Shown piece after piece: positions 4,628 to 45,484 of a stretch of 64,000 bases of DNA; position 1 is the first letter of the stretch, and each line of letters starts with the position of its first letter. This stretch comes from Candidatus Saccharimonadota bacterium (GTDB taxonomy: Bacteria > Patescibacteriota > Saccharimonadia > Saccharimonadales > JACOTW01). The stretch lies in contig JACOTW010000012.1 in NCBI GenBank assembly GCA_016178135.1, positions 1,064 to 65,063 on the forward strand, read 5' to 3'. The notes beneath the pieces are model-generated. The model was not told the DNA's origin. It made no database searches and saw only the letters and a program-made list of their open reading frames with translations. A program made the position numbers and the translations under genes.

Positions 4628-4702
4628 TGGCTGGGACGGTAGGATTCGAACCTACGAATGCCAGTACCAAAAACTGGTGCCTTACCACTTGGCCACGTCC
4701 CA
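4628..4702 (-). tRNA. tRNA-Gln (anticodon UUG), CCA encoded
   Basis: Reverse complement TGGGACGTGGCCAAGTGGTAAGGCACCAGTTTTTGGTACTGGCATTCGTAGGTTCGAATCCTACCGTCCCAGCCA. Cloverleaf with 7-bp acceptor stem and anticodon loop TTTTGGT. Confidence 0.9.
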
Positions 4703-11996: not shown

Positions 11997-13408
11997 ATTC
12001 TGAACCAAACTTGCCCTTGTTTTGTGTCGCGCACGCCGATACCTTCTCCTGCAAGCCTATCACGAAGTTGGTCTGATTTTACCCAGTTTTTGTTGTCCCT
12101 TGCCTTTTGTCTTTCACTGAGGGTTAGCTTTTGGGCATCTGATATATTGCTACGATTAGTTAAGTCTAGACCCAGAATCTGGTCAATATAGTCCAATAAG
12201 TTCTTAAAATAACTTAGCTGATCTTCTTCAATTGTGAAGTGCAACATATCAGCCGTTAAGTCGCTGACTTGTTTTAGTACCTCCGGCAGATTTATGTCAT
12301 CTTCGATAGCTTTCTTGATGCTCTCAAGGTGTTTGAGAAAATCTCCTTCAACCAGACCCGACTCGCCTTTGGTTCGCGTCTGGAATACTAAGTCTGCCAT
12401 TGCTCGGATATCTTTTATACGGTTTTGGGCGGCCTCGAGGTTTGTCCAGGTGAAATTGCTTTGGCTACGATAGTGGGATTGTAGAACCATCAGGCGGAAG
12501 GCTAGCGGGTCAAGATCATTGTCCTGTATATCTTGGAGGGTGAAAAAATTATTTAGTGATTTACTCATTTTTCTGCCATCAACCAGTAGATGCTCGTTAT
12601 GGATAAATATATTCGCGAGCGTTGGGTTGGCTTTACCTGCGGTGCTTTGAGCAATCTCGTTTTCGTGATGTGGAAAAATCAAATCTACGCCTCCGGTGTG
12701 AATATCAAAAGGTTGTCCAAGCGTGTTAGCACTCATAGCCGAACACTCGATGTGCCAGCCCGGTCGGCCATCAAGTTTCTTGCCGTCCAGTGTAAAATCC
12801 CAGATTGGTTCGTCCGCTTTTCCGATTTTCCATAGCGCGAAATCATGTGGCGAATCTTTATCGTATTCATCATTTTGAATACGTGCCGAGGAAGTATTAC
12901 TGTCCGTGATATCCAGTAGCTGGCCATACTTTTTGCCACTGTCTCGATATTCTTTAATCGAAAAATACACGCCATCGTCGGCTATGTACGCGAAGCCATC
13001 GTCATGAAGTTTTGTGATCAGGGCTTTCATATCTTCAATGCGATCGGTAGCATTTATAAACTTAATGGACTCTACATCACAGCCGACGCTCCGCATATCA
13101 TCCAGAAATAGTTTAGAATATTCGGTGGTTAGTTTCTTTAGCGCTTGTTTGGGGTCGAGATTGGGGTATTTTTCTTTACTTCGCTTGATAGTTTTATCGT
13201 CTACATCAGTAAAGTTCATGACATGATCGATCTCGTAGCCACTGGCTCGCAAGGTTCGACTCAGTGTATCGGCATAGATAAAGCTAGCCAAATTACCAAT
13301 GTGTATATGATCATAAACTGTCGGGCCACAAGAATAAATCGACACCTTTTTATTATTCAGTGGCGTAAAATCTTCAATCTCTCGTATAAGTGTGTTATAT
13401 AATCTCAT
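11993..13408 (-). CDS. cysS: Cysteinyl-tRNA synthetase
   Basis: CGPTVYDHIHIGNL (HIGH) and KMSKSLNN motifs. Confidence 0.95.
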   Translation of the reverse strand: MRLYNTLIREIEDFTPLNNKKVSIYSCGPTVYDHIHIGNLASFIYADTLSRTLRASGYEIDHVMNFTDVDDKTIKRSKEKYPNLDPKQALKKLTTEYSKLFLDDMRSVGCDVESIKFINATDRIEDMKALITKLHDDGFAYIADDGVYFSIKEYRDSGKKYGQLLDITDSNTSSARIQNDEYDKDSPHDFALWKIGKADEPIWDFTLDGKKLDGRPGWHIECSAMSANTLGQPFDIHTGGVDLIFPHHENEIAQSTAGKANPTLANIFIHNEHLLVDGRKMSKSLNNFFTLQDIQDNDLDPLAFRLMVLQSHYRSQSNFTWTNLEAAQNRIKDIRAMADLVFQTRTKGESGLVEGDFLKHLESIKKAIEDDINLPEVLKQVSDLTADMLHFTIEEDQLSYFKNLLDYIDQILGLDLTNRSNISDAQKLTLSERQKARDNKNWVKSDQLRDRLAGEGIGVRDTKQGQVWFRI

Positions 13409-14580
13409 GACTTGTCTGTAATTTTATCAAGTAATTCTGTGGCGATGGTTAGGCATTCGGTTTTGACTGCTTGCGCTGTGCGACTGTCCGTGACCTTGAA
13501 GCCACTGGCGTAAACGTGCCCACCACCGCCAAAATGAGATGCCAAATCGGCCGCGATGCTGGCACCGGCATTACATCGGATTGAACCGGTAATTTTGCCG
13601 TCATTATAAACTTTCAAGACTATCGCTACTTTTACGCCTTCGGTTTGTAGCATGTCTGTTTGAATAAGTGGGGCTGGATTGTATAGCGGACTGTATTTCA
13701 TTAGTTCATCATGCCCAATACTGACTAATGCGATTCTGTCATCGCTCAATAATTCAGTTCTGTCTATCAGGGTAGCTTTGTATTTAAAAATCGTTTTGGG
13801 CATCTTGGCCTGTGCGCGACGAGCTTCCTCGAGTTTTATTCTGTTAACTCCGCCCTCTATGAGGTCGGCCATAATTCTATAGGTATTTGGCGTTGTGCCT
13901 TCGCTGGAAAGCCCCAGGGAATCTGATAGGATTGAACTAGTGATATGGGTTTTTGCCTGGAGGTTGAGCGGCCAGTTTAGCTCATCGGCCAGTTTATAAA
14001 TCACTTCGCCGGTTGCTACGGCATCATGATCATTTATGACAAGTGTAGCGTAGGTTATGTCGCACTCCACATCAGTGTGATGATCGAGTACGATTACTGG
14101 CTTGGAAGCTACGATGCTTTTGTAGCTACTGTTGTCGAGTTTCTCCAGAAGGATTGCAGCACTAGTGTCTACTATGATGCTTAAGTCGATTTTGTTCGGA
14201 ATCTCCTTACTGACTCTGTCCCAGCCGTCCAAATGACGCAAGTATTCTGGAATATTTACACCACAATACAGAAATGTTTGCTTGCCTGCGTCCCCCAGTA
14301 TTTCCTCAAGTGCCAGGGCACTTCCCAGACTATCCCCATCCGGGTTATCCGCCTGGATTATTGCAATCCGCTCTGATTCATCAACCAACTTCTTAATACC
14401 CTGGTATAGCCCCCGCAAAACAAATTCGGGGGTTTTGGAGCCGATGATCTTCGAGTCAAAAACTGGCTTTTCTGAGGGAAGCATATCATTAGATAAGGTG
14501 AGTGAGGAAAGACAGCTTTTGACCGGAGAGGGCGGTTCAAAAAGCAGTGAATTTGTTTTGCGGGGGCTATAATTATTCAT
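13405..14580 (-). CDS. DHH/DHHA1 phosphoesterase (NrnA-like) carrying an in-frame family-B element after codon 3
   Basis: DNPDGDSLGS, DHH and GGGH motifs. ATG overlaps the recR stop (ATGA). Confidence 0.8.
   Translation of the reverse strand: MNNYSPRKTNSLLFEPPSPVKSCLSSLTLSNDMLPSEKPVFDSKIIGSKTPEFVLRGLYQGIKKLVDESERIAIIQADNPDGDSLGSALALEEILGDAGKQTFLYCGVNIPEYLRHLDGWDRVSKEIPNKIDLSIIVDTSAAILLEKLDNSSYKSIVASKPVIVLDHHTDVECDITYATLVINDHDAVATGEVIYKLADELNWPLNLQAKTHITSSILSDSLGLSSEGTTPNTYRIMADLIEGGVNRIKLEEARRAQAKMPKTIFKYKATLIDRTELLSDDRIALVSIGHDELMKYSPLYNPAPLIQTDMLQTEGVKVAIVLKVYNDGKITGSIRCNAGASIAADLASHFGGGGHVYASGFKVTDSRTAQAVKTECLTIATELLDKITDKS
14405..14571 (+). mobile_element. Family-B element, copy B1 (167 bp including both TA), intragenic
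   Basis: Termini TATAGCCCCCGCAAAACAAATTC ... GAATTTGTTTTGCGGGGGCTATA. Confidence 0.9.
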
Positions 14581-15182
14581 AACAACGTTCTTCCTTCCAG
14601 TGCTCGTCCAAGGGTAATCTGATCAGCATATTCCAGGTCTACGCCAACAGACAGACCGCGTGCCAAGCGAGTGATCTTTACTTTTTGATGGCCCATTTGT
14701 TGTTGAATATATAATGCGGTTGATTCGCCCTCAACACTTGCGTTAGTGGCCAAAATAATTTCCTTGACCTTATCTTCCCTAACGCGTTTAACTAGTTCAG
14801 TTATATGTAATTGCTCTGGACCAATACCGTCAATTGGCGACACTAGACCACCCAAAACATGGTAGGTTCCTCTAAAATGGCCGGTTTTTTCAATAGCGGC
14901 AACATCAAAAGATTCAGCAACTACTGCAACGATTTTTTTGTCTCTGCTTGGATCGGTGTAAAGTGGCGACAACGTTTGACCCTTTTCTACTAAAGCAAAA
15001 GTTTTTTGGCAACGCTCAATGCCGCTATGTAAGCTACTTAATTTTTGTGCTATACGTTCGGCGACACTAGGTTCGGCCTTCAGTAAATAGTAGGCATAAC
15101 GTTCAGCAGTGCGTGGACCTACGCCAGGTAGATCGCCCAATGCTTCGATCACTTCAACTAGTGCCTTGGGTAAAACTTGCAT
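14577..15182 (-). CDS. recR: Recombination protein RecR
   Basis: LPGVGPRTAERYAYYLL helix-hairpin-helix and Toprim-like ILATNASVEGE. Confidence 0.9.
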   Translation of the reverse strand: MQVLPKALVEVIEALGDLPGVGPRTAERYAYYLLKAEPSVAERIAQKLSSLHSGIERCQKTFALVEKGQTLSPLYTDPSRDKKIVAVVAESFDVAAIEKTGHFRGTYHVLGGLVSPIDGIGPEQLHITELVKRVREDKVKEIILATNASVEGESTALYIQQQMGHQKVKITRLARGLSVGVDLEYADQITLGRALEGRTLL

Positions 15183-15595: not shown

Positions 15596-15762
15596 TATAG
15601 CCCCCGCAAAACAAATTCGGGGGTTTTGGAGCCGATGATCTTCGAGTCAAAAACTGGCTTTTCCGAGGGAAGCATATCATTAGATAAGGTGAGTGAGGAA
15701 AGACAGCTTTTGGCCGGAGAGGGCGGTTCAAAAAGTCGTGAATTTGTTTTGCGGGGGCTATA
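15596..15762 (+). mobile_element. Family-B element, copy B2 (167 bp), intergenic
   Basis: Differs from B1 at 4 positions by manual alignment. Same orientation. Confidence 0.9.
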
Positions 15763-15765
15763 AGC

Positions 15766-16944
15766 CTATTGACGAATGAAGGCTGCTTTAGTTTCAGGCG
15801 CGTTTGGCCAAGCTATAAAATACTGGCTTATATGATAAAAACTAGTCAGAGCTACCGTGATAACAATAAGACCAGTGCCAATCGTATGGGCTAGTGGGTT
15901 ACGAGGAAAGACTGTAAGCCATTGTTGCAATAATAGGGCTAGGCCAGCCGCACCTATAATGTAAATGAATGGCATTAAAATCAATAGTTTTACTGGGCCG
16001 CCAATTGATACCAGTATAAAACCAATAATTGATACCGCAGCGAGTAGCCTGGTACGGTCCAGCTTGACACTAAACCAATAAGCGTAGAGACCAACCGCAA
16101 ACATCGTGATATTGAACACATCAAGTAATGGTATGGTTCCAAGCCAATGAGCTGGATCTTTGGGGCCACGCCAAAGCAGTTGCCTAGGTATGGCTAACGC
16201 GTTATCGAATACTTGTTTGATAGTTGGCCAATGGTCTGGCAATCCTAGTAGTGGTCTTAAGATTTCGGGCTTTAACCACACGGCTCGTAAAAGTGGAACA
16301 ACGAGTAGTAATACAGCTATAGTCCAGAGTACGCTAAGCCATAAGGGCATTTGGTTGAGCGTGGTAAATATTCGTTTTCGTTGCCAAAATAGCCCAGGCA
16401 ACACAAACCAGATTAAACCCGGTATGTACAGTAATAGTGTACCTATAATAGCTAGCCCAAAAAGTGTTATACTTGGCCACTTACCCTTCTTTAACCATAT
16501 ACCAAATAGCACCAAACTTAGTAAGGCAGTGTAAAGAATGTCTGGAGTTCCTAATCTTGCCGCGTGTAGAAGCCAGCTGGATGAGGCGAACAAAGCAGTT
16601 GCCATGAAGGCGATTCTTGTGGTATGCCATGATCGAATAATCAAGTAAAACAACCAAACAGCTAGCAATCCAAAAAGTGCACTCACGCTTCTTAGGACAA
16701 AGATACTATGACTACCAAATATCTGAATAACGGCGGTTAGTGCCGCATGTGGCAAGTTTAGGGGTTTGTTCGCTACTAGATTAAGGTTTGCGTTGTTGGC
16801 GGCATAGGATAGTTCGGATTGATGTGGTCCAATCGTCAATGAGCCAAGCTTAAACCAGAATAGGCCAACTATAAATAGTGTAGAAATGCCTATGATAAGA
16901 GCTGGTTGCCAATTATCGGCTATTATTTGACGAAGCTTATTCAT
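15766..16944 (-). CDS. Polytopic membrane protein, GT-C/ArnT-PMT-like glycosyltransferase candidate
   Basis: ORF 15766..17124. ATG at 16944 (MNKLRQ...) is chosen because residues 1-60 are translated family-A repeat. More than 10 TM helices. Confidence 0.5.
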   Translation of the reverse strand: MNKLRQIIADNWQPALIIGISTLFIVGLFWFKLGSLTIGPHQSELSYAANNANLNLVANKPLNLPHAALTAVIQIFGSHSIFVLRSVSALFGLLAVWLFYLIIRSWHTTRIAFMATALFASSSWLLHAARLGTPDILYTALLSLVLFGIWLKKGKWPSITLFGLAIIGTLLLYIPGLIWFVLPGLFWQRKRIFTTLNQMPLWLSVLWTIAVLLLVVPLLRAVWLKPEILRPLLGLPDHWPTIKQVFDNALAIPRQLLWRGPKDPAHWLGTIPLLDVFNITMFAVGLYAYWFSVKLDRTRLLAAVSIIGFILVSIGGPVKLLILMPFIYIIGAAGLALLLQQWLTVFPRNPLAHTIGTGLIVITVALTSFYHISQYFIAWPNAPETKAAFIRQ

Positions 16945-17032
16945 GAATTTCTTAAGTAGTATACATCGAAAAAGGAAAAACTGTTTGCAACCGGCTTGGG
17001 ACAAGCTGGTATCAACGGCTAACTGGACCTGT

Positions 17033-17182
17033 CGCAAAACTCCTCCATCCCCAGATCGAATTCTATCGGCTACAAACAGTTTTTCTTCTCTCGATGTAGC
17101 TACGGCTACCTCTCCTTCAGACAAAACAGTTTTCGCTCAAGATAATTCACTCTGGGAACGGACGATTTTGCGACAGATCCAG
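17033..17182 (+). mobile_element. Family-A element, copy A4 (150 bp, CTGTCGC subtype), intergenic
   Basis: CTGGACCTGTCGCAAAAC ... ATTTTGCGACAGATCCAG. Flanks are CTAA and TTAA. Confidence 0.85.
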
Positions 17183-17200
17183 TTAAGTTCAGTAAAAAGA

Positions 17201-18563: not shown

Positions 18564-20279
18564 CTACTCTAGCACTTCAGCGCCACCGAAGATATTGCTT
18601 ATGGTTCCCAGTGCTGTTGACGGCGCTTTGATCACTGGTTTATCAATGGCGGACTGTACATCCATGTTCTTAACAACAATACAATTTATGGAAATTTTTT
18701 TACCAGTTTGTTCATACAAAATGGATTCGATTGTCGCTTTATTTTTGGATTCGTTAAGTTGTTTTTGATGAAATGGAAAGCCGAAGCTAAGGGTCAATAC
18801 GTCATCATTTAATTCTGCGGAAGCCATACGCGCAAGGCTATATAGTGTGTTGTGTTTGTTTTTTATAGCTACTAACGCGGCCGGCCATATATTAGATTCA
18901 TGCAAAGTCTTCTCGTTCCCAGACTGGCCAACCTCGGCTGATTCGATATTTTTGTCAGATAAGATTTTTTGCGGTTCTTGTTTTTGGATGGTAGTAGTCT
19001 GCTGGGAGGTGGTTTTTTTGGTGTGGTTCTTTGGAGTTTTCTTGTGCGATACGGGTAACGTGGCTGGTGGTGCTAAGCTCGATTTATGCGAAATCTCCGC
19101 ATCCCCAGACCAACTAATCTCAAGCGGTAGCGGTCTGCCTTCTTTCGATGTAACTAAGGCGGCTACCTCTCCTTCAGTCAAACCACTATCTGCTCGAGCT
19201 GATTTAGCCTGGGAACGGGCGATTTTGCGTAAGTCCAGTGAATGATCTTCTGATTCACTTTTGGCTAGCCCAGTAGAATGCGAGGTTTTGCGTAGGTCTA
19301 GGGACTGCTTTGTTTTGGTATTCTCCAGGGCTGCTCCGATAAGCGTGATTTCCAGCGCCGAGGCTGGATCGTGAGCAGTTGGTACGGTCAGTAACTTTTC
19401 CAAGATTGAGGTAAATGCAGATGGCTCAAAAGACCATTCGCCATCCAGTAGATCATGGCGTAATTGTGCACTTAGTTGTTTGGCTATTTGACCAGGGTGA
19501 AAGCCTTGCTCGGATAGTTCGTCAAGCAGTTTAACTACTTCTTTTGCTGCACCTTCACTAACGACCTTTTTAAGTTGTGTTATAACTGCATTGGGAGCAA
19601 TTCCCAAAACTTCAATAACGTTATTCTCGCTAATATTTTTACCACTACTTGCTATTTGGTCGAGTAGGCTTATGCTATCACGGAATGATCCATCCCCGTG
19701 TTTAGCTATAAGCTCAAGAGCACCGTCGTCTATGTCAATATTTTCTGATTTGGCAATTGTGCGCAGATGTTGCGCGACTTTATGGGTTTCTATCGGTTTA
19801 AAAGTAAAACGCTGAGTTCTGCTGATTATGGTTTCCGGCAATTTGTGGGCTTCTGTGGTTGCCAAAATAAAAATAGCGTGCGCTGGTGGCTCCTCAAGCG
19901 TTTTTAAGAGAGCGTTGAAAGCTTCTCGGGTCAGCATATGTACTTCATCAATAATGTAAACTTTGTATTTCGTGCTGGTCGGGGTATTGTGTACTCGTTC
20001 ACGAATTTCTCTAATTTCATCAATTCTTCGGTTGCTCGCGGCATCAATCTCAATAATATCGAGATGCGATCTATCATCATCGTAAGGCAAATTATTAACT
20101 TCATGCGCTAAAATTCTGGCAATACTGGTTTTACCAGTGCCACGTGGTCCAGTAAATAAATAGGCGTGACTTATAGAGTTATTTTTTATGGCATTCTTGA
20201 GGGTCGTGGTGATGTGTTCCTGTCCCACTATTTCAGATAATTTCTTAGGTCGGTATTTCCGATACAATGCTTTCCCCAT
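18564..20279 (-). CDS. dnaX: DNA polymerase III gamma/tau subunit with in-frame family-A element
   Basis: YRPKKLSEIVGQEH, GPRGTGKTS, IIDEVHMLT, LLKTLEEPP. Confidence 0.9.
   Translation of the reverse strand: MGKALYRKYRPKKLSEIVGQEHITTTLKNAIKNNSISHAYLFTGPRGTGKTSIARILAHEVNNLPYDDDRSHLDIIEIDAASNRRIDEIREIRERVHNTPTSTKYKVYIIDEVHMLTREAFNALLKTLEEPPAHAIFILATTEAHKLPETIISRTQRFTFKPIETHKVAQHLRTIAKSENIDIDDGALELIAKHGDGSFRDSISLLDQIASSGKNISENNVIEVLGIAPNAVITQLKKVVSEGAAKEVVKLLDELSEQGFHPGQIAKQLSAQLRHDLLDGEWSFEPSAFTSILEKLLTVPTAHDPASALEITLIGAALENTKTKQSLDLRKTSHSTGLAKSESEDHSLDLRKIARSQAKSARADSGLTEGEVAALVTSKEGRPLPLEISWSGDAEISHKSSLAPPATLPVSHKKTPKNHTKKTTSQQTTTIQKQEPQKILSDKNIESAEVGQSGNEKTLHESNIWPAALVAIKNKHNTLYSLARMASAELNDDVLTLSFGFPFHQKQLNESKNKATIESILYEQTGKKISINCIVVKNMDVQSAIDKPVIKAPSTALGTISNIFGGAEVLE
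19078..19238 (+). mobile_element. Family-A element, copy A5, intragenic in dnaX (left terminus degenerate)
   Basis: CTCGATTTATGCGAAATCTCCGCATCCCCAGACC ... GATTTTGCGTAAGTCCAG. Confidence 0.8.
19286..19301 (+). repeat. Orphan family-A right terminus inside dnaX
   Basis: TTTTGCGTAGGTCTAG, 47 nt from A5. Translated as a second LDLRK. Confidence 0.6.
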
Positions 20280-23941: not shown

Positions 23942-24128
23942 TAGATCTCCTTTGGAGTAATTTCTAATTGATAGTTATTGTTGACATGATTCGCTTCGAC
24001 CATCACGAACCTTCAGTACCAAAAAGCCTCTGCATTACCAGAGGCTAAAACATGCTCACAAACAAAAATGTCGGCTTGCACCTCGGCGACAAATCAAGCC
24101 ACTAATGGCAGTCGCTGTCTTTGGTAAC
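23942..24128 (-). promoter_or_regulatory. Long 5' UTR of rplJ, candidate L10-leader autoregulatory RNA
   Basis: About 186 nt between the predicted promoter and the rplJ ATG. Contains hairpin GCCTCTGGTAATGCAGAGGC. The assignment rests on analogy only. Confidence 0.3.
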
Positions 24129-24134
24129 ACGGTA

Positions 24135-24163
24135 ATTCTATCTGTTAAAAAGCTTTTTGTCAA
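24135..24163 (-). promoter_or_regulatory. Sigma70-type promoter candidate for rplJ-rplL
   Basis: On the minus strand: TTGACA (24163-58), 17-nt spacer, TAGAAT (24140-35). Confidence 0.55.
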
Positions 24164-32915: not shown

Positions 32916-33638
32916 TTAATTGTACACGAGTTTCGTATGAGCAAAATGAGGTTGTTTAGATCGTATAACGCGTCGTGCGTCAGCTACGTTTGGCAAGTAT
33001 AGAGCAAGTTCTGACCAAAATGGTTCACCGTGGCGCATGACTTTGGTATGAACAAGTTCATGGAGCAAAACGTAATCAATTAATTCCCAGGGAAGCTGCA
33101 TTAAAAAACAATTAAGAGTGATCTCTTTTTGCTGATTACAGCTTCCCCAGCGGCTAGCCAGCCGTTTTATTTGAACGTTGCGATACGAAAATCCATGCCT
33201 AGAAGCGTGTTCCGCGAGGCGACTGGGGAGTAACTTTTGGGCCTCGACTGTTAGAGCTTTGATCGCAACGCGTTCGGCGGCTTTTTGAACTTTTTGGCTT
33301 TCTATAGCAATTGACCTAGGGTAAATAACTCTTGCCTCATTGCCGACCAGCCTGGTTGTTATCCGTTGGCCAGCAACGGATGGTATAAAAATAAGGCTGT
33401 GAGCTTTACCGATTCGCATATTAGAGCTTAAAAGAGTACTACTGTTTGTCTGGTGTTTTAGTATCCAGTCTTGTTTGGATCGAGCAAATTCAATACCGGC
33501 CTTATACGGCAACCATTTAGGCATTGTTACCCTGATGCCACCGACAGCACTCAAGCTAATACGCAGATTACTACTCCCTCGTCGTTTGTACAGTTTAATA
33601 ATGCCGATCTCTGGCAAATCAAATTCTTTTACTGACAT
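32916..33638 (-). CDS. YgjP/DUF45-like zinc metallohydrolase
   Basis: HELVHTKVMRHGEPFW (HExxH). ATG at 33638 is chosen because upstream residues are translated repeat. Confidence 0.7.
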   Translation of the reverse strand: MSVKEFDLPEIGIIKLYKRRGSSNLRISLSAVGGIRVTMPKWLPYKAGIEFARSKQDWILKHQTNSSTLLSSNMRIGKAHSLIFIPSVAGQRITTRLVGNEARVIYPRSIAIESQKVQKAAERVAIKALTVEAQKLLPSRLAEHASRHGFSYRNVQIKRLASRWGSCNQQKEITLNCFLMQLPWELIDYVLLHELVHTKVMRHGEPFWSELALYLPNVADARRVIRSKQPHFAHTKLVYN

Positions 33639-33650
33639 GTTTTTATTATA

Positions 33651-33890
33651 CTGGGCCTGTCGCAAAATCCCTCGTTCCCAGGACGAATCAGCTCGAGCGA
33701 AAACAGTTTTGTCTGAAGGAGAGGTACCCAGGAGGTATAGTCCCCGCAAAACAAATTCGTGGGTTTTTGAAGCAATGATCTTTGAGCCAAAAACTGACTT
33801 TTCCGAGAGAGACATATCCTTAGATACGTTGAACGAGGAAAGGCGGTTTTGGGCCAAAGAGGGTGATTCGAAATTTTGCGACAGGCCCAG
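33651..33890 (-). mobile_element. Composite: family-A element (CTGTCGC subtype) carrying a nested truncated family-B element
   Basis: CTGGGCCTGTCGCAAAATCCC...GGTACCCAGGAG | TATAGTCCCCGCAAAAC...GATTCGAAA | TTTTGCGACAGGCCCAG. Direct TATA at 33647-50 and 33891-94. Confidence 0.85.
33736..33873 (+). mobile_element. Family-B subtype B' (right terminus missing), copy B3, nested in A
   Basis: 138 nt. Differs from B4 at 2 positions by manual alignment. Confidence 0.85.
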
Positions 33891-33978
33891 TATAGGACCT
33901 TCGTACTTTGTCGCCAATTCCAGAGTAATCCTGCAGCCCTCTAGGATTGGTCTGGGGTGATGAAAAAGTAGGAAAAAC

Positions 33979-35462: not shown

Positions 35463-36152
35463 GTGAGCAGTTATAGCCCCCGCAAAACAAATTCGTGGGT
35501 TTTTGAAGCAATGATCTTTGAGTCAAAAACTGACTTTTCCGAGAGAGACATATCCTTAGATACGTTGAACGAGGAAAGGCGGTTTTGGGCCAAAGAGGGT
35601 GATTCGAAAAGAGCTTATTATCTAACACAGTTTGACGCGCTGGAAGCTCTAGACAACGGTGTTGGTAATTGTTTTTCGAAAGCTATGGTTGCATGTGGAA
35701 TAATAGTATTAAAATATGCGGTTGAGCCGTCAATAGTTTATAAAAAGTCGATACATGGCTCTAAAGATACTGCGATTGATAAGCCTACGGACTCAAAAAC
35801 AGGCAAAAAAATCGCGCATGTGGTTGTAGCCGTACCCGGTTCAAATCCAACTACAGATAAATCTATTCCGGGCTTGAATTTTGGAGTAGCAGTTTCCCAA
35901 GGAGTTAAATTTACCCAAACAGATGCAGGTGAAATACTACAGGATTATAATGAACCCGGAGAATTTGTACGTGTTAATGAAACGGGCACAGTGATTGCTA
36001 CTGAAATTGCTACTGAACGGGGTATGTTTGGTGATAGGTGGCGGGATATTGCTCCAGATTATTTACAAGCTTTGGACAGACCTGACCTGGACATAGATCT
36101 CTTAATTGGTAAGCTCAAAGAATCATACCCAGATGATCAAGTTGCGGCATAG
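35463..36152 (+). CDS. Hypothetical protein. The first about 49 codons derive from family-B element B4. Possible Cys-His peptidase-like core.
   Basis: GTG start at 35463. No alternative ATG before residue 75. GNCFSKAMVAC ... AHVVVAV noted, but this is a weak motif. Confidence 0.4.
   Translation: MSSYSPRKTNSWVFEAMIFESKTDFSERDISLDTLNEERRFWAKEGDSKRAYYLTQFDALEALDNGVGNCFSKAMVACGIIVLKYAVEPSIVYKKSIHGSKDTAIDKPTDSKTGKKIAHVVVAVPGSNPTTDKSIPGLNFGVAVSQGVKFTQTDAGEILQDYNEPGEFVRVNETGTVIATEIATERGMFGDRWRDIAPDYLQALDRPDLDIDLLIGKLKESYPDDQVAA
35472..35610 (+). mobile_element. Family-B subtype B' copy B4 (right terminus missing)
   Basis: TATAGCCCCCGCAAAACAAATTCGTGGG...GGGTGATTCGAAA. Confidence 0.85.
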
Positions 36153-36229: not shown

Positions 36230-36306
36230 TGGCAGGGGTGGAGGGATTCGAACCCGCGGCCTTTGGTTTTGGAGACCAACGCTCTAACCAACTGAGCTAC
36301 ACCCCT
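36230..36306 (-). tRNA. tRNA-Trp (anticodon CCA), CCA encoded
   Basis: Reverse complement AGGGGTGTAGCTCAGTTGGTTAGAGCGTTGGTCTCCAAAACCAAAGGCCGCGGGTTCGAATCCCTCCACCCCTGCCA. Confidence 0.9.
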
Positions 36307-36377
36307 GTATGAATCCTTACGAACAGAGTAATCATACCGAAATTACGCTATTTTGTCATCAGCTATTTTGTGTGTAT

Positions 36378-36584
36378 CTAGTGTTTACGCGGTTTTACTT
36401 CGTTGCGACCTAATGATTTTTTGGTTTCGACGTATAAGACATGTTTGCGCAGTACGGGATCATATTTGCGAAGAGATAATTTATCTGGCGTATTCATGGT
36501 ATTTTTGGTCGTGTAATAATGTCGGCCTCCACTAGCTTCGGATACCATACCTATGATTTTTCGTTTGTCGCCTTTTTTTGCCAT
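36378..36584 (-). CDS. rpmG: 50S ribosomal protein L33 (Cys-less form, C-terminal extension)
   Basis: [55 protein letters not shown]. Confidence 0.85.
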
Positions 36585-36628
36585 AACTCAAAAAGTTTAA
36601 CAGATTAGAATAGAATATGCAATATCTA

Positions 36629-36785
36629 TTGGTCTTACGTAAAATCTCTTGTCTCCAGGGTGAATCGGCTCGAGCGAAAACGGTTTTATCCGAAGGAGAC
36701 GTACCCGAGCACATCGATAGTCGATAGAACTGTTTGTAGTCGAGATTAGTCGGTATAGGAATAAGGGAGTTCTAGCTAAGTTCAG
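36629..36785 (-). mobile_element. Family-A element, copy A10 (degenerate termini), between tRNA-Thr and rpmG
   Basis: TTGGTCTTACGTAAAATC...GGGAGTTCTAGCTAAGTTCAG. Ends 3 nt from the tRNA-Thr 3' end. Confidence 0.75.
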
Positions 36786-36788
36786 GTT

Positions 36789-36863
36789 TGGAGCCGTTGA
36801 CGAGAGTTGAACTCGTGACCCCCTCCTTACCATGGAGGTGCTCTACCACTGAGCTACAACGGC
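36789..36863 (-). tRNA. tRNA-Thr (anticodon GGU), CCA encoded
   Basis: Reverse complement GCCGTTGTAGCTCAGTGGTAGAGCACCTCCATGGTAAGGAGGGGGTCACGAGTTCAACTCTCGTCAACGGCTCCA. Confidence 0.9.
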
Positions 36864-36928
36864 AAATTTAACCTGATAATAGTAGCAAATTTACTTCGTT
36901 TTTGCTACACTTTAGAACTGTTACGAGT

Positions 36929-37004
36929 GCCACCTTAGCTCAGTGGCTAGAGCAACACTTTTGTAAAGTGAAGGTCGTCGGTTCGAATCCGACAGGTGGC
37001 TCCA
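36929..37004 (+). tRNA. tRNA-Thr (anticodon UGU), CCA encoded
   Basis: GCCACCTTAGCTCAGTGGCTAGAGCAACACTTTTGTAAAGTGAAGGTCGTCGGTTCGAATCCGACAGGTGGCTCCA. Confidence 0.9.
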
Positions 37005-37013
37005 GTTTTAAAC

Positions 37014-37099
37014 GCAGGGTTAGTGAAGCGGTCAAACACGGCAGACTGTAAATCTGCTGGCTTATGCCTTCGTAGGTTCGAATCCTACACCCTGCACCA
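37014..37099 (+). tRNA. tRNA-Tyr (anticodon GUA), long variable arm, CCA encoded
   Basis: GCAGGGTTAGTGAAGCGGTCAAACACGGCAGACTGTAAATCTGCTGGCTTATGCCTTCGTAGGTTCGAATCCTACACCCTGCACCA. Confidence 0.9.
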
Positions 37100-40331: not shown

Positions 40332-40526
40332 GTGCCGTATGCACCATACGAACAAGTGCCTGAGCGTGTCTGGAGGTTTGATGGAACTACAGATGTGCAT
40401 GCAGTTACAGGTAAGGGATACACATCACGTAACCGTTTATTGGTATACGCGGATGGTGAAGATACTAAGTTCACCCAAATTTTTGAAGACGAGTACGACC
40501 CGGCTCCAGAGACATCGCAGATATAG
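40332..40526 (+). CDS. Hypothetical protein (start uncertain; frame open from 40251)
   Basis: 64-aa ORF from GTG. Acidic C-terminus. Confidence 0.35.
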   Translation: MPYAPYEQVPERVWRFDGTTDVHAVTGKGYTSRNRLLVYADGEDTKFTQIFEDEYDPAPETSQI

Positions 40527-40544
40527 CCCCCGCAAAACAAATTC
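40522..40544 (+). repeat. Orphan family-B left terminus
   Basis: TATAGCCCCCGCAAAACAAATTC, 23/23 identical to the B1/B2 terminus. No matching right end nearby. Confidence 0.8.
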
Positions 40545-42251: not shown

Positions 42252-43121
42252 CTACAGACTGACCATAAGTGAACTTAATAATAGCTTAATATTGGGTTTG
42301 TGTTTAAGCGATGTTTCGGCTTTAAAAAGTTCTTGCATTCGCAAATGCCAGCGTTTGCTCAAAGTCAAGTCGCCTTTTTCGATAGATTGAATCAGCGCCG
42401 CTCGGCTAACTTGTTTTAGTGCGTAGAAAAGCGAGGTAAGTTCTTCTTTTTTACCAACAAGACTATCGACTTCTATCAGTCGCTGATACGTGGTTGATCC
42501 CAGGAGCTTTTTAGCCAGATTCACATGTTGGTTCAATATGTTTTCTGTGTTTTGAGTCAAGAGGCTGTGCATTAGTCCAATCTGCCCACTACTTACGTGG
42601 TATGCTCGAACGATTTCTTGATTGGTAATTCCCTGCTTGCTAAAAAAATCAATAAGCTCTGTTTTTGATGGAGCGAGTAAACGGGCGTGCTGTACCCTTG
42701 AATATATCGTACTACGCAAACCACGTTCGCCATTTTCGGTTAGGATGATTCTTGTATCAAGTGGCGGCTCTTCTAGTATTTTTAAAAGAGCATTTTGAGC
42801 TTCTATGGTCATACTTTCTGAATTTTCTATTACAATAACCCGACGAATCGTTGCTTTGCCCGATGTTTTAAGTTGAAGAAAATGCCGCAAATCTCGTACA
42901 GCATCGATGCCAAGTGAATTTTCACCCCCCCGTAAACGCATGAATCCTGGATTGATAATAAGCTTGTCGAGCTTGACATCAAGTAATCTACCGGCAAGAT
43001 TTAATGCTACGAATTTTTTGCCCGCGCCATTTGGACCACTGATGAGCAGGGCGTGTGCTTGGCTTTTAATGAATTGCTCAAGTTGTGCGGAAACTGTTTT
43101 ATTTATTAATAAGTCCATCAC
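42252..43121 (-). CDS. holB: DNA polymerase III delta' subunit
   Basis: LLISGPNGAGKKF, AQNALLKILEEPP. Confidence 0.75.
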   Translation of the reverse strand: MMDLLINKTVSAQLEQFIKSQAHALLISGPNGAGKKFVALNLAGRLLDVKLDKLIINPGFMRLRGGENSLGIDAVRDLRHFLQLKTSGKATIRRVIVIENSESMTIEAQNALLKILEEPPLDTRIILTENGERGLRSTIYSRVQHARLLAPSKTELIDFFSKQGITNQEIVRAYHVSSGQIGLMHSLLTQNTENILNQHVNLAKKLLGSTTYQRLIEVDSLVGKKEELTSLFYALKQVSRAALIQSIEKGDLTLSKRWHLRMQELFKAETSLKHKPNIKLLLSSLMVSL

Positions 43122-44188
43122 GAATCCAGTAAATTAAAAAATTCTTCGGGTACTGGCACCTGAAATGTCATGTGCTTACCATTTTTCAGTGTAAGCTCTA
43201 GTTTTTCGGCGTGAAGGTATAGCCGATCAGCGGACTGGCCGTCGTATATCGTATCCCCTACAATAGGATAGCCTAGCTTTTTTAAGTGCACGCGTAGTTG
43301 ATGGGTGTGCTCAGTGCGCGGTTTTAGTTCAACTAAATCATAATTTTTTCCTGATTTAACAACATTGTATTCCGTTTGTGCCGTTTTGCCATTTATGCCA
43401 GTTCTAAATGTCTGTGGATGCTTAGGATTCCGCTCTATAGGCATATCAATAATCGCATGCGCAGGTATAATATGGCCAAAAACCACTGCTTTATAAGTTT
43501 TATATACCTTACGTGTAGAGAATTGCTTTTGAAGCCAGCTAAGCGAAGTATTGTTTTTGGCGCAAATAATAACCCCAGAGGTCGCCCTATCCAGACGATG
43601 AACAATCCCCTCTCGAGTTTGCATGGAAGATTTCTGCGAGTCCGATAAACTGGACTTACCCAAAGCTCCCTCATCCCCAGACCGACTAACCTCGGCTACA
43701 AACAGTTTTTCCTCTCTCGATGTACCTTCAGGTACCTCTCCTTCAGACAAAACTGTTTTCGCTCGAGCTGATTCGCCCTGGGAACGAGGGATTTTGCGTA
43801 AGTCCAGTAAACTAGTATTTTGTTGTCTAGCATGTTTATTCAAGTGATCGAATAGCCAAGTTGCGATGGTTGCTTCGGGATTGAACGCTCCTTTGCTGTG
43901 CGTCAACAACCCAGCTGGTTTATTTATAACAACACAGTCGTCATCTTCGTACAAAACCGGCAATTCTATTCTGGGTATATCTTCAGTTGTATTTGGATCA
44001 AAATCAATGTTAATTTGATCTTCTAACCTTAGTTTATATCCGGTTTTTTTGATCTCGTCTCCTACAGTTATAAACCCTCGGTTGCATAATTTTTGAACAT
44101 GCGCCCTACTGATTTGAGGTAATTTGTTATGTACAAAAACATCAAGCCTCTCTCCTGCAGAGGTTTTAGGCACCGTTACTTGTATCAT
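43118..44188 (-). CDS. rluD: RluD-type 23S rRNA pseudouridine synthase (S4 domain + RluA core) with in-frame family-A element
   Basis: N-terminal S4 domain (ERLDVFV...). Catalytic HRLDRATSGVIICAKN. Confidence 0.85.
   Translation of the reverse strand: MIQVTVPKTSAGERLDVFVHNKLPQISRAHVQKLCNRGFITVGDEIKKTGYKLRLEDQINIDFDPNTTEDIPRIELPVLYEDDDCVVINKPAGLLTHSKGAFNPEATIATWLFDHLNKHARQQNTSLLDLRKIPRSQGESARAKTVLSEGEVPEGTSREEKLFVAEVSRSGDEGALGKSSLSDSQKSSMQTREGIVHRLDRATSGVIICAKNNTSLSWLQKQFSTRKVYKTYKAVVFGHIIPAHAIIDMPIERNPKHPQTFRTGINGKTAQTEYNVVKSGKNYDLVELKPRTEHTHQLRVHLKKLGYPIVGDTIYDGQSADRLYLHAEKLELTLKNGKHMTFQVPVPEEFFNLLDS
43650..43807 (+). mobile_element. Family-A element, copy A11 (158 bp), intragenic in rluD
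   Basis: CTGGACTTACCCAAAG...ATTTTGCGTAAGTCCAG. Direct TAAA at 43646-49 and 43808-11. Confidence 0.9.
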
Positions 44189-44189
44189 G

Positions 44190-45275
44190 CTACGTACGCA
44201 ATCCTACGGCTTTTTGAACTTTAGCGAGTATTGTTTCAGCAATTTTACACATAGCGGTCTCGCTCATTGCCAACTTTTGCTCCAATGCTTTAGTATCAAC
44301 CATTTCTAATTTTGTCTGAAAATCCTCTAAAAATTGCCCCGTTAATATCGCGACGGCTTCTTTGAGTGGACCGTATTGCTTGGAACCGATAAATTCATGC
44401 TTTCTTCCGCCGAATAGCTCTAAAATATCCAATAAATTACTTATACCTGGCTGGGTAGTATAGTCATATTTGATCTCGCCTAGACTATCAGTAGTTGCGG
44501 ATTGAATTTTTTTGTGAGCTTGTTCCGGCGTATCATTTAAGAATATAACTCCCTTGCCCGATGCATCTGATTTACTCATTTTTTTAGCGGGATCAAGTAA
44601 ATCGCGTATACGTAGACCTTGGTCTTTGCCGAAAAATTCATGCTGCTCTTTAGCTGATTTCGGTACGATAAATAATTCACCAAACTTACTATTCATTCTT
44701 TCGGCAATATCACGTGTAAATTCCAGGTGTTGTTTTTGGTCATCTCCAACCGGTACGTATATAGCCCCATACAAAAGTATATCCGCAGCCATAAGTACAG
44801 GATAATCGAATAGCCCCATACTTACATGATTTTGTTGAAACGCATTCTTTGGATTAGCAGAAAAGGAATCTTGTCGAGCTGATTCACCCTGAGAACGAGG
44901 GATTTTGCGTAAGTCCAGTTTATCCTTAAACTGGGTCATGCGAGACATCTCTCCAAATCCAGTAAAACTATTCAGAATTATAGTAAGCTCACTATGTGCC
45001 GGCACATAACTTTGACGATAAATGTGTATATTTGGGTTGTCCAGCGGCAAACCAGCGGCTGCAAATACCCGCAGGTTATTCATAATGCCAGCCTGAAGTT
45101 GGCTGTGATCAATCGGTGTAGTAAAACTATGTAAGTCCGGAACGAACAAATTGATTTGATAATCATCGGCATGCCGTCGAGCCATATCAATTATAGGCAA
45201 AAGCGCCCCCAGATAGTTGCCTATATGTAGGTCATTATTAGCCCTAAGTCCGGTCAAAATCACTGGCTTATTCAT
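44190..45275 (-). CDS. trpS: Tryptophanyl-tRNA synthetase with a 15-codon family-A remnant
   Basis: HIGNYLGA (HIGH), KMSKS, YPVLMAADILLY. ATG at 45275 is chosen because upstream residues are translated repeat A13. Confidence 0.9.
   Translation of the reverse strand: MNKPVILTGLRANNDLHIGNYLGALLPIIDMARRHADDYQINLFVPDLHSFTTPIDHSQLQAGIMNNLRVFAAAGLPLDNPNIHIYRQSYVPAHSELTIILNSFTGFGEMSRMTQFKDKLDLRKIPRSQGESARQDSFSANPKNAFQQNHVSMGLFDYPVLMAADILLYGAIYVPVGDDQKQHLEFTRDIAERMNSKFGELFIVPKSAKEQHEFFGKDQGLRIRDLLDPAKKMSKSDASGKGVIFLNDTPEQAHKKIQSATTDSLGEIKYDYTTQPGISNLLDILELFGGRKHEFIGSKQYGPLKEAVAILTGQFLEDFQTKLEMVDTKALEQKLAMSETAMCKIAETILAKVQKAVGLRT
44874..44918 (+). repeat. Family-A right-arm remnant (45 nt) inside trpS
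   Basis: TCGAGCTGATTCACCCTGAGAACGAGGGATTTTGCGTAAGTCCAG followed by TTTA. Confidence 0.85.
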
Positions 45276-45327
45276 TGGTAATAGTATACACGAGTTACGG
45301 CGACAGCTAAAAACGATTGATTGTATA

Positions 45328-45484
45328 TAGGACTTACGCACTTTGTTACCAATGCCAGAGTGTAGCTGGGTGAGCGAAAACGGTTCAGGTTCTGGAGGGG
45401 TAGCCATAGCTACACCGAGAGAACATGGGCCGTTTGTAGCCACATAGGTTAAGTCTGGTGTGGTAAGAAAGTGCGTAAGTCCTA
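45328..45484 (-). mobile_element. Family-A element, copy A13 (157 bp), between rpsI and trpS
   Basis: TAGGACTTACGCACTTT ... AAAGTGCGTAAGTCCTA. Flanked by TATA on both sides. Confidence 0.8.

Follow-up and report, generated by a model that had tools for sequence, protein, structure and literature searches.

How does a conserved bacterial gene come to carry a transposon-like repeat in frame directly behind its start codon, and what becomes of its product? The question is raised by a 64,000-nucleotide stretch of contig JACOTW010000012.1 (assembly GCA_016178135.1, Candidatus Saccharimonadota bacterium; positions 1,064 to 65,063), hereafter the window. Here a palindromic element of 163 bp, B1, occupies 14407-14569 and lies within Tyr codon 4 (TAY) of the gene for a stand-alone, NrnA-like DHH/DHHA1 phosphoesterase (13405..14580, minus strand), with the reading frame unbroken. 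We regard it as likely that B1 is a miniature inverted-repeat transposable element (MITE) that was derived from, or mobilised in trans by, a transposase of the IS630 family, a judgement that covers the explanation developed below as a whole.

An insertion in Tyr codon 4 of an NrnA-like gene

B1 is bounded by perfect 21-bp terminal inverted repeats: TAGCCCCCGCAAAACAAATTC at 14407..14427 on the plus strand and its perfect complement at 14549..14569 on the minus strand. The 21-mer has seven matches in the window at three or fewer mismatches, against 0 expected. Both ends abut the dinucleotide TA, the left copy of the duplicated target lying at 14405..14406 and the right copy at 14570..14571, and once one TA is counted the gene has gained 165 bp, or 55 codons. 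An earlier note on this DNA, made from the letters alone, had proposed just this net insertion at a TA inside a Tyr codon, and the coordinates and the flanking dinucleotides bear it out; its wording that the element follows codon 3 is strictly inexact, since the insertion is inside codon 4, as the note's own reasons had it. From the native ATG the gene encodes 391 amino acids, codons 4-58 being element plus one TA. It reads MNN-YSPRKTNSLLFEPPSPVKSCLSSLTLSNDMLPSEKPVFDSKIIGSKTPEFVLRGL-YQGIKKLVDESERIAIIQADNPDGDS, that is MNN-YSPRK...FVLRGL-YQGIKK, and the minus-strand open reading frame (ORF) matches exactly the translation that had been quoted. In-silico removal of B1 and one TA yields ATG AAT AAT TAC CAG GGT..., which translates as MNNYQGIKKLVDESERIAIIQADNPDGDSL. 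The native ATG (14578..14580, minus strand) overlaps the TGA stop codon of recR (14577-14579) as ATGA, recR (14577..15182, minus strand) being the upstream member of the overlapping pair; the same overlap is present in a relative (locus L001) and in a second genome of the species (locus L012).

The unoccupied form of the gene is found in relatives. A protein search with the host protein returned 6523 homologues, the best 120 of which are 328-360 amino acids long, apart from the record of the host gene itself, and the insert is absent from all of the about 45 homologues that were read or aligned. The closest relative (P0002; 89% identical, 333 amino acids) starts MNSYRDAGKLINKSQRIVIIQADNPDGDS with Tyr4 conserved, and other homologues start MQDQIKELVDKAQRIVIIQADNPDGDS and similar. 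The excised gene resembles them, so that the canonical N-terminus predicted to return on excision is indeed the one carried by insert-free proteins. On L001, the contig of P0002, the gene order membrane protein-ybaB-recR-DHH and the ATGA overlap are as in the window, and the site itself reads ATG AAT AGC TAT CGT (ATGAATAGCTATCGT), with a single TA in the conserved Tyr codon. This syntenic locus supplies the empty site that the earlier note had suggested seeking in relatives. Within the species, a scan of metagenome contigs with the flank of the recR-nrnA junction, AGAACGTTGTTATGAATAATTA, gave 0 hits and so yielded no empty allele, the junction expected of such an allele being AATAATTAC-CAGGGT. 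Across Saccharimonadales the host gene is highly conserved, at about 75% identity.

The occupied allele does not depend on one assembly. It is found in every sampled genome of the species, in at least two independent assemblies, among them GCA_040960765.1 (L012), where the gene is called as 391 amino acids. The species is also represented by the metagenome-assembled genomes that hold MBI1857382.1 and MBI3337990.1. The public record of the host gene, P0001, has two NCBI accessions, and there was no exact entry for it in the contig index.

B1 also has a close sibling. Copy B2 (15596..15762 with its TA flanks, body 15598-15760) is a full, intergenic copy 1.2 kb away, 98% identical to B1 (4 differences), in the same plus orientation, with TA on both sides and the same three open frames; it begins 3 nt past the stop of a membrane-protein ORF (15766..17124, minus strand). 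Further copies of this family, family B, exist beyond the window: there is one in L006, and others on a 654-kb NCBI contig are inferred from ORFs P0121-P0125. B1 thus combines small size and inverted repeats with a target duplication, an empty site and multiple dispersed copies, the marks by which prokaryotic MITEs are recognised. It has no transposase gene of its own, its frames giving 55-residue peptides only, and no Rfam match to it was found.

IS630-type ends and stop-free frames

The terminal repeat leads to the probable parent. A scan for the repeat in one genome per species found 9 loci, and a metagenome scan 45 more. The 9 genome loci are all in Patescibacteria (Saccharibacteria, Minisyncoccia, Kuenenbacteria and unclassified members). 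About 27 loci in Patescibacteria genomes and metagenomes hold TA-flanked elements of 1090-1140 bp bounded by the same 21-mer; their left end is that of B1 (in L004, L005, L007, L013 and others), and they encode a 348-residue protein with DDE_3 and HTH domains that scores 202 bits on NCBIfam NF033545, IS630 family transposase (cut-off 100). B1 and the full-length elements share only about 32 bp at each end, and both of them, like B2, are flanked by TA. Duplication of TA is the signature of the IS630 family. Since its repeats match those of IS630-family elements in other Patescibacteria, we take B1 to be an IS630-derived MITE; the shared sequence shows an IS630 parentage of its ends. A tblastn search of the 64-kb window for an IS630-type transposase gave no significant match.

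As a group, the full-length elements (L004, L005, L007, L010, L013, L014, L016, L020 and others) combine a near-invariant 21-bp end with transposases that diverge down to 43% identity, and in this IS630-type group of Patescibacteria the transposase stop codon sits inside the right repeat. Most copies of the group are on contigs of about 1.1 kb, a sign that they break assemblies. Three loci with MITE-sized pairs of the same ends (L025, L051 and L052) were considered as members of family B and rejected; their interiors are unrelated and have stops in every frame.

The parent elements also account for the way in which B1 is read. The transposase ORF enters the right repeat and ends CCC GAA TTT GTT TTG CGG TAG, that is ...IPEFVLR*. 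In the full-length elements the right-end repeat with this TAG is GCGGTAGCTA, and the MITE has GCGGGGGCTA at both ends, GGG replacing TAG. Because the left-end version thus stands at both ends and the stop is gone, the frame reads on as PEFVLRGL into the host gene. Counting the TA flanks, B1 has no stop in frames +0, -0 and -1; the same holds for B2 and for the L006 copy, which is 82% identical, and frame 2 always meets the TAG of the repeat. Frame 0 being stop-free both ways, a TA at codon positions 1-2, as in a Tyr codon, is permissive in either orientation, and there is no frameshift because element and duplication add up to 165 bp. At least three open frames occur in 1.7% of interior shuffles, and 30 random substitutions, equal to the distance between B1 and the L006 copy, leave all three frames open in 10% of trials; the statistical support for open frames as a family trait is modest, suggestive but not strong.

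Put together, these results suggest that in a recent ancestor of this Saccharibacteria species the MITE integrated at the TA of Tyr codon 4 of the NrnA-like gene and duplicated it. The TA sitting at codon positions 1-2, the element is read in frame 0, which is free of stops in either orientation, and the final codons of the frame read by the host (PEFVLR) are those of the C-terminal frame of the parent transposase, running into the right repeat.

Enzyme core, start codon and competing explanations

The protein behind the insert is intact. Pfam places DHH at residues 71-199 and DHHA1 at residues 309-372, both above cut-off, and homology to NCBIfam and to NrnA, Rv2837c and DHH chains in PDB begins at about residues 57-62, directly after the insert. 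These chains, which align from about residue 61, are the nearest in PDB (E about 1e-13). Since the score on the NrnA equivalog NF053633 is 80.7 bits, below the cut-off of 350, the gene is, from its sequence, best called an NrnA-like DHH family phosphoesterase. In the alignment, all invariant family residues are retained, including those of the catalytic motifs DxD, DHH and GGGH (D78, D81, D83, D138, D166-H167-H168 and G351-H355). The ORF has no stops or frameshifts, and private departures from the conserved consensus number 3 in the insert-bearing lineage versus 11 in the insert-free relative. By these counts the catalytic core is not decaying, and the evidence that the earlier note had named as telling against itself, a pseudogene in this lineage, did not emerge. 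The idea of a pseudogene is unsupported by this relative-rate count, though the insertion may be too young for decay.

Two in-frame ATGs are candidates for the start of translation. Upstream of the native ATG, GGAAGGAAG is kept at -18..-10, and both it and the ATGA overlap are conserved in L001. Given that the two are kept, ribosomes terminating on recR would be delivered to the native ATG, and their re-initiation is the most economical route by which the gene could have stayed expressed. The earlier note was right about the overlap itself, and its statement that translational coupling is preserved goes beyond what the overlap tells. Between the candidate starts our preference inclines, by a little, to the native ATG. 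With either start the predicted product includes the whole DHH/DHHA1 core. If the native ATG is used, the product would be an enzyme with an untouched core and an added 55-residue tail, disordered and N-terminal, that would be free to drift in sequence; we infer that the tail is translated and the enzyme active. AlphaFold (mean predicted local distance difference test, pLDDT, 82.6) models the core at about 90 and residues 1-44 below 50, so the added peptide is predicted to be disordered; helix 1 is extended back to residue 52, with element residues 52-58 (EFVLRGL) modelled as helical. A tryptic peptide, TNSLLFEPPSPVK, is diagnostic for residues 4-32 of the native-start product.

As RNA, B1 forms a long hairpin (-68.4 kcal/mol, z = -11.25). 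A role as terminator was rejected because the hairpin is followed by CUAUACCAGG instead of a U run, and our scan of the element found no promoter-like or terminator-like site in it.

The window and L012 are 99.53% identical over 17.2 kb. Between them B1 has 4 differences in 163 bp (at 14473, 14516, 14522 and 14546); nrnA outside the element has 0 in 1000 bp and B2 has 0. With a background, outside a tract in cysS, of about 19 differences in 16.5 kb, we estimate the Poisson probability of at least 4 in 163 bp at about 5e-5, a figure to be read with the fact that differences cluster elsewhere too. Relaxed constraint, conversion between copies, hairpin-related mutation or assembly noise in repeats could each be behind the differences in B1. 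As a separate observation, the cysS stretch 12444-12923 (about 480 bp) holds 58 of the 81 differences between the two strains over the 17.2 kb and has the look of DNA imported by recombination from a more remote relative.

Several results weigh against the account of a tolerated, translated MITE, or at least lessen what can be drawn from it. Three of the six frames being open, half of all insertions (50%) would leave the ORF intact, and an intact ORF is by itself no sign of selection. A search of 5.8 billion proteins with the three element peptides turned up 6 small hypothetical ORFs only, without a further real host protein, so that habitual in-frame insertion is not demonstrated for family B. 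Nor did a cognate transposase turn up in a Saccharibacteria genome: of 777 transposase relatives most are nameless, and none of the few named ones is from Saccharibacteria. All three amino-acid differences between the strains (L12R, V20A and S22N) fall within the element peptide, so that its sequence is not conserved. The 23-bp perfect stem of the hairpin starts at +10 of the native AUG, and the predicted cost of opening positions -20..+15 doubles, from 8.4 kcal/mol in the excised gene to 16.9 in the occupied one. Finally, the public annotation (P0001) starts at Met33 and gives a 359-residue product, MLPSEKPV...

This last point leads to the rival that we judge possible, if doubtful, namely that translation begins at Met33, an in-frame ATG within the element (14482..14484, minus strand). 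The enzyme would then have 359 residues, 26 of them an element-derived leader, and an N-terminus reading MLPSEKPVFDSK, and the native ATG with its recR coupling would be unused or only partly used. Met33 lies in the apical part of the hairpin, where pairing is weak, and its opening cost of 7.9 kcal/mol is close to that of the excised native site and far from the 16.9 of the occupied one. Yet the 25 nt upstream of it hold no purine-rich, Shine-Dalgarno-like motif, whereas the native ATG keeps both GGAAGGAAG and ATGA, and ribosomes that terminate on recR would reach the native ATG whatever the structure. That P0001 is annotated from Met33 is not experimental evidence; annotation pipelines tend toward the start that best fits the length of homologues. 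Whichever start is used, one gene with two starts in public records (359 and 391 amino acids) is an annotation problem.

That the insertion silenced the gene or strongly lowered its expression, by blocking initiation or through a cut by a double-strand RNase, we think improbable. Such a locus would be a very young pseudogene or hypomorph; the stability of the hairpin with its perfect stem and the doubled opening cost are what one would expect of it, for Correia elements it is documented that RNase III cuts MITE repeats in mRNA (PMC10969869), and the strains, with 0 differences in the core, are too close for decay to be visible. It sits poorly with the occurrence of the allele in every sampled genome of the species, with the conservation of the gene in Saccharimonadales and with the 3 consensus departures versus 11 in an ORF that has kept its frame. 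Moreover, elongating and terminating ribosomes unwind such stems. We give somewhat less credit still to co-option of the element, for example through the hairpin, as a site of processing or attenuation by which nrnA would be uncoupled from recR, or through the tail, in targeting or interaction. The sampled strains have kept the allele and the last seven element residues are modelled within helix 1, but no other part of the locus changes faster than the element, which holds every protein difference and encodes a peptide predicted to be disordered, and the hairpin and frame properties are traits of the family and not adaptations to this site, because the intergenic B2 has the same ones. The reading without any insertion, in which an ancestral N-terminal extension was lost elsewhere or the metagenome assembly went astray, is effectively refuted. 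The genome is indeed metagenome-assembled, repeats are prone to mis-assembly, and many matches to the repeat lie at contig ends; but against this reading stand the perfect repeats with their duplicated TA, the intergenic copy 1.2 kb off that is 98% identical, the same junctions in an independently assembled genome, and the absence of the insert from the homologues examined.

Family-A repeats and known palindromic elements

A second repeat family of about 165 nt, family A, is more abundant than B in the window and sits in frame in dnaX and in an RluD-like gene. In dnaX (ORF 18564..20279, minus strand) a family-A repeat of about 162 nt, at 19078-19239, is read through at about residues 347-401, after gamma/tau domain III. 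The dnaX gene of L001, the 89% relative, at 626-2311, has a diverged, still open family-A insertion at about 1665-1849. Because the relative has this diverged yet open version at the same place, the dnaX insertion is older and has been retained; in this lineage, then, an essential gene continues to be read through an element of this kind. In the RluD-like pseudouridine synthase (ORF 43118..44188, minus strand) the S4 and PseudoU_synth_2 domains are separated by an in-frame family-A repeat at 43649-43809, and a 55-nt family-A fragment at 44868-44922 lies within the ORF of a class-I (Tyr/Trp) tRNA synthetase (44190..45443, minus strand). Repeated independent in-frame insertions in unrelated conserved genes are thus found for family A; family B offers one case. 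The dnaX copy also differs between the window and L012, at 19154, 19216 and 19240.

In-frame insertions are frequent for the Rickettsia palindromic elements (RPEs; Ogata et al. 2000), as a review of MITEs notes (PMC10969869). RPEs and B1 are alike in being palindromic repeats of about 150 bp with a frame-compatible length and stop-free frames, in lying in frame within conserved housekeeping genes of a reduced-genome, host-dependent bacterium, and, if the B1 peptide is translated as we suppose, in adding a peptide that is tolerated at a non-critical position. What sets B1 apart from RPEs is that its 21-bp terminal repeats are clear, its TA is duplicated, an IS630-type parent can be identified and its host belongs to Patescibacteria. 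Its family, again unlike RPEs, has a single insertion in a real gene, the multi-gene pattern being that of family A; it is the family-A pattern, more than the lone B1 event, that resembles Rickettsia. To our knowledge, the origin of the open frames in the Rickettsia elements has stayed obscure. For B1 the source of frame compatibility is explained, the C-terminus of the transposase being encoded in the terminal repeat and its stop lost in the MITE.

RUP of Streptococcus pneumoniae, reportedly described by Oggioni and Claverys in 1999 as an IS630-related MITE, shares with B1 the non-autonomous state, IS630-like ends, insertion at and duplication of TA, and multiple copies. RUP differs in being 107 bp long and essentially intergenic; B1 differs in that all finds of its parent-type element so far come from other lineages of Patescibacteria, and in having the left-end repeat at both ends with the transposase stop removed. 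The Correia elements of Neisseria likewise duplicate TA, measure about 100-155 bp, have long inverted repeats and form a hairpin in mRNA. They have post-transcriptional effects, including the RNase III cleavage mentioned above (PMC10969869), and, unlike B1, they bring promoter or IHF sites with them and act for the most part in untranslated regions, nothing promoter-like having been found in B1. In-frame fusions of MITE-borne frames with host ORFs, in ERIC, BOX and other families, are 'not unusual' according to the same 2024 review (PMC10969869); in comparison, B1 belongs to another family and host and stands at the extreme N-terminus, beside an overlapping stop-start junction.

In-frame MITE insertions and IS630-related, TA-duplicating MITEs are thus already established. 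The less familiar features of B1 are its host phylum, an open frame whose origin can be traced, and its place at a stop-start overlap. A search of the literature on MITEs in Saccharibacteria or the candidate phyla radiation gave nothing relevant, and among the papers searched none joins 'miniature inverted-repeat' with 'Saccharibacteria'. The locus is a documented case, in a bacterium of the candidate phyla radiation, of a MITE inserted in frame into a conserved gene, with an empty site as proof and the parent transposon identified. Its effect on the organism is probably small and would amount to a floppy N-terminal tail on an enzyme that is otherwise normal. Only tentatively do we entertain the wider idea that MITE families of Saccharibacteria have been shaped for life inside genes as RPEs have. 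Family B would owe its stop-free frame to the C-terminal coding end of the transposase, minus the stop codon; any Tyr codon (TAY) would be a safe site in either orientation, and translation would add disordered segments to housekeeping proteins, to NrnA in the case of family B and to DnaX and the RluD-like synthase in that of family A. If true, selfish DNA in protein-coding genes would have arisen independently for a second time in a host-dependent lineage with a reduced genome, and here the parent transposon would be known.

The remaining repeats of the window touch several neighbouring ORFs. A right-truncated B copy of the L006-like subfamily (35474..35611, plus strand) supplies the first codons of the ORF 35463..36152 (plus strand), which is without a Pfam match. 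At 33647-33896 a chimera has a family-A left half, a B-type segment that starts TAGTCCCCGCAAAAC at 33738 (B-like part 33738..33873, plus strand) and, at its right end, family A again; either nesting of one element in the other or recombination between them would explain it, and the YgjP-like ORF 32916..33917 (minus strand) runs through it. A solo B-type terminal repeat with TA before it (40524..40544, plus strand) lies just upstream of a small membrane-protein-like ORF. A family-A copy at 17022-17184 overlaps the N-terminus of the 452-residue PMT_2-like ORF 15766..17124 (minus strand), the membrane-protein ORF next to B2, which is probably over-extended into the repeat; its L001 orthologue has 399 residues, fitting an internal MNKLRQ... 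start, and in L012 the gene is also called with 452. The Rfam matches in the window are ordinary features, namely an L10 leader (24011-24142, minus strand) and five tRNA genes (4631-4702 and 36233-37096).

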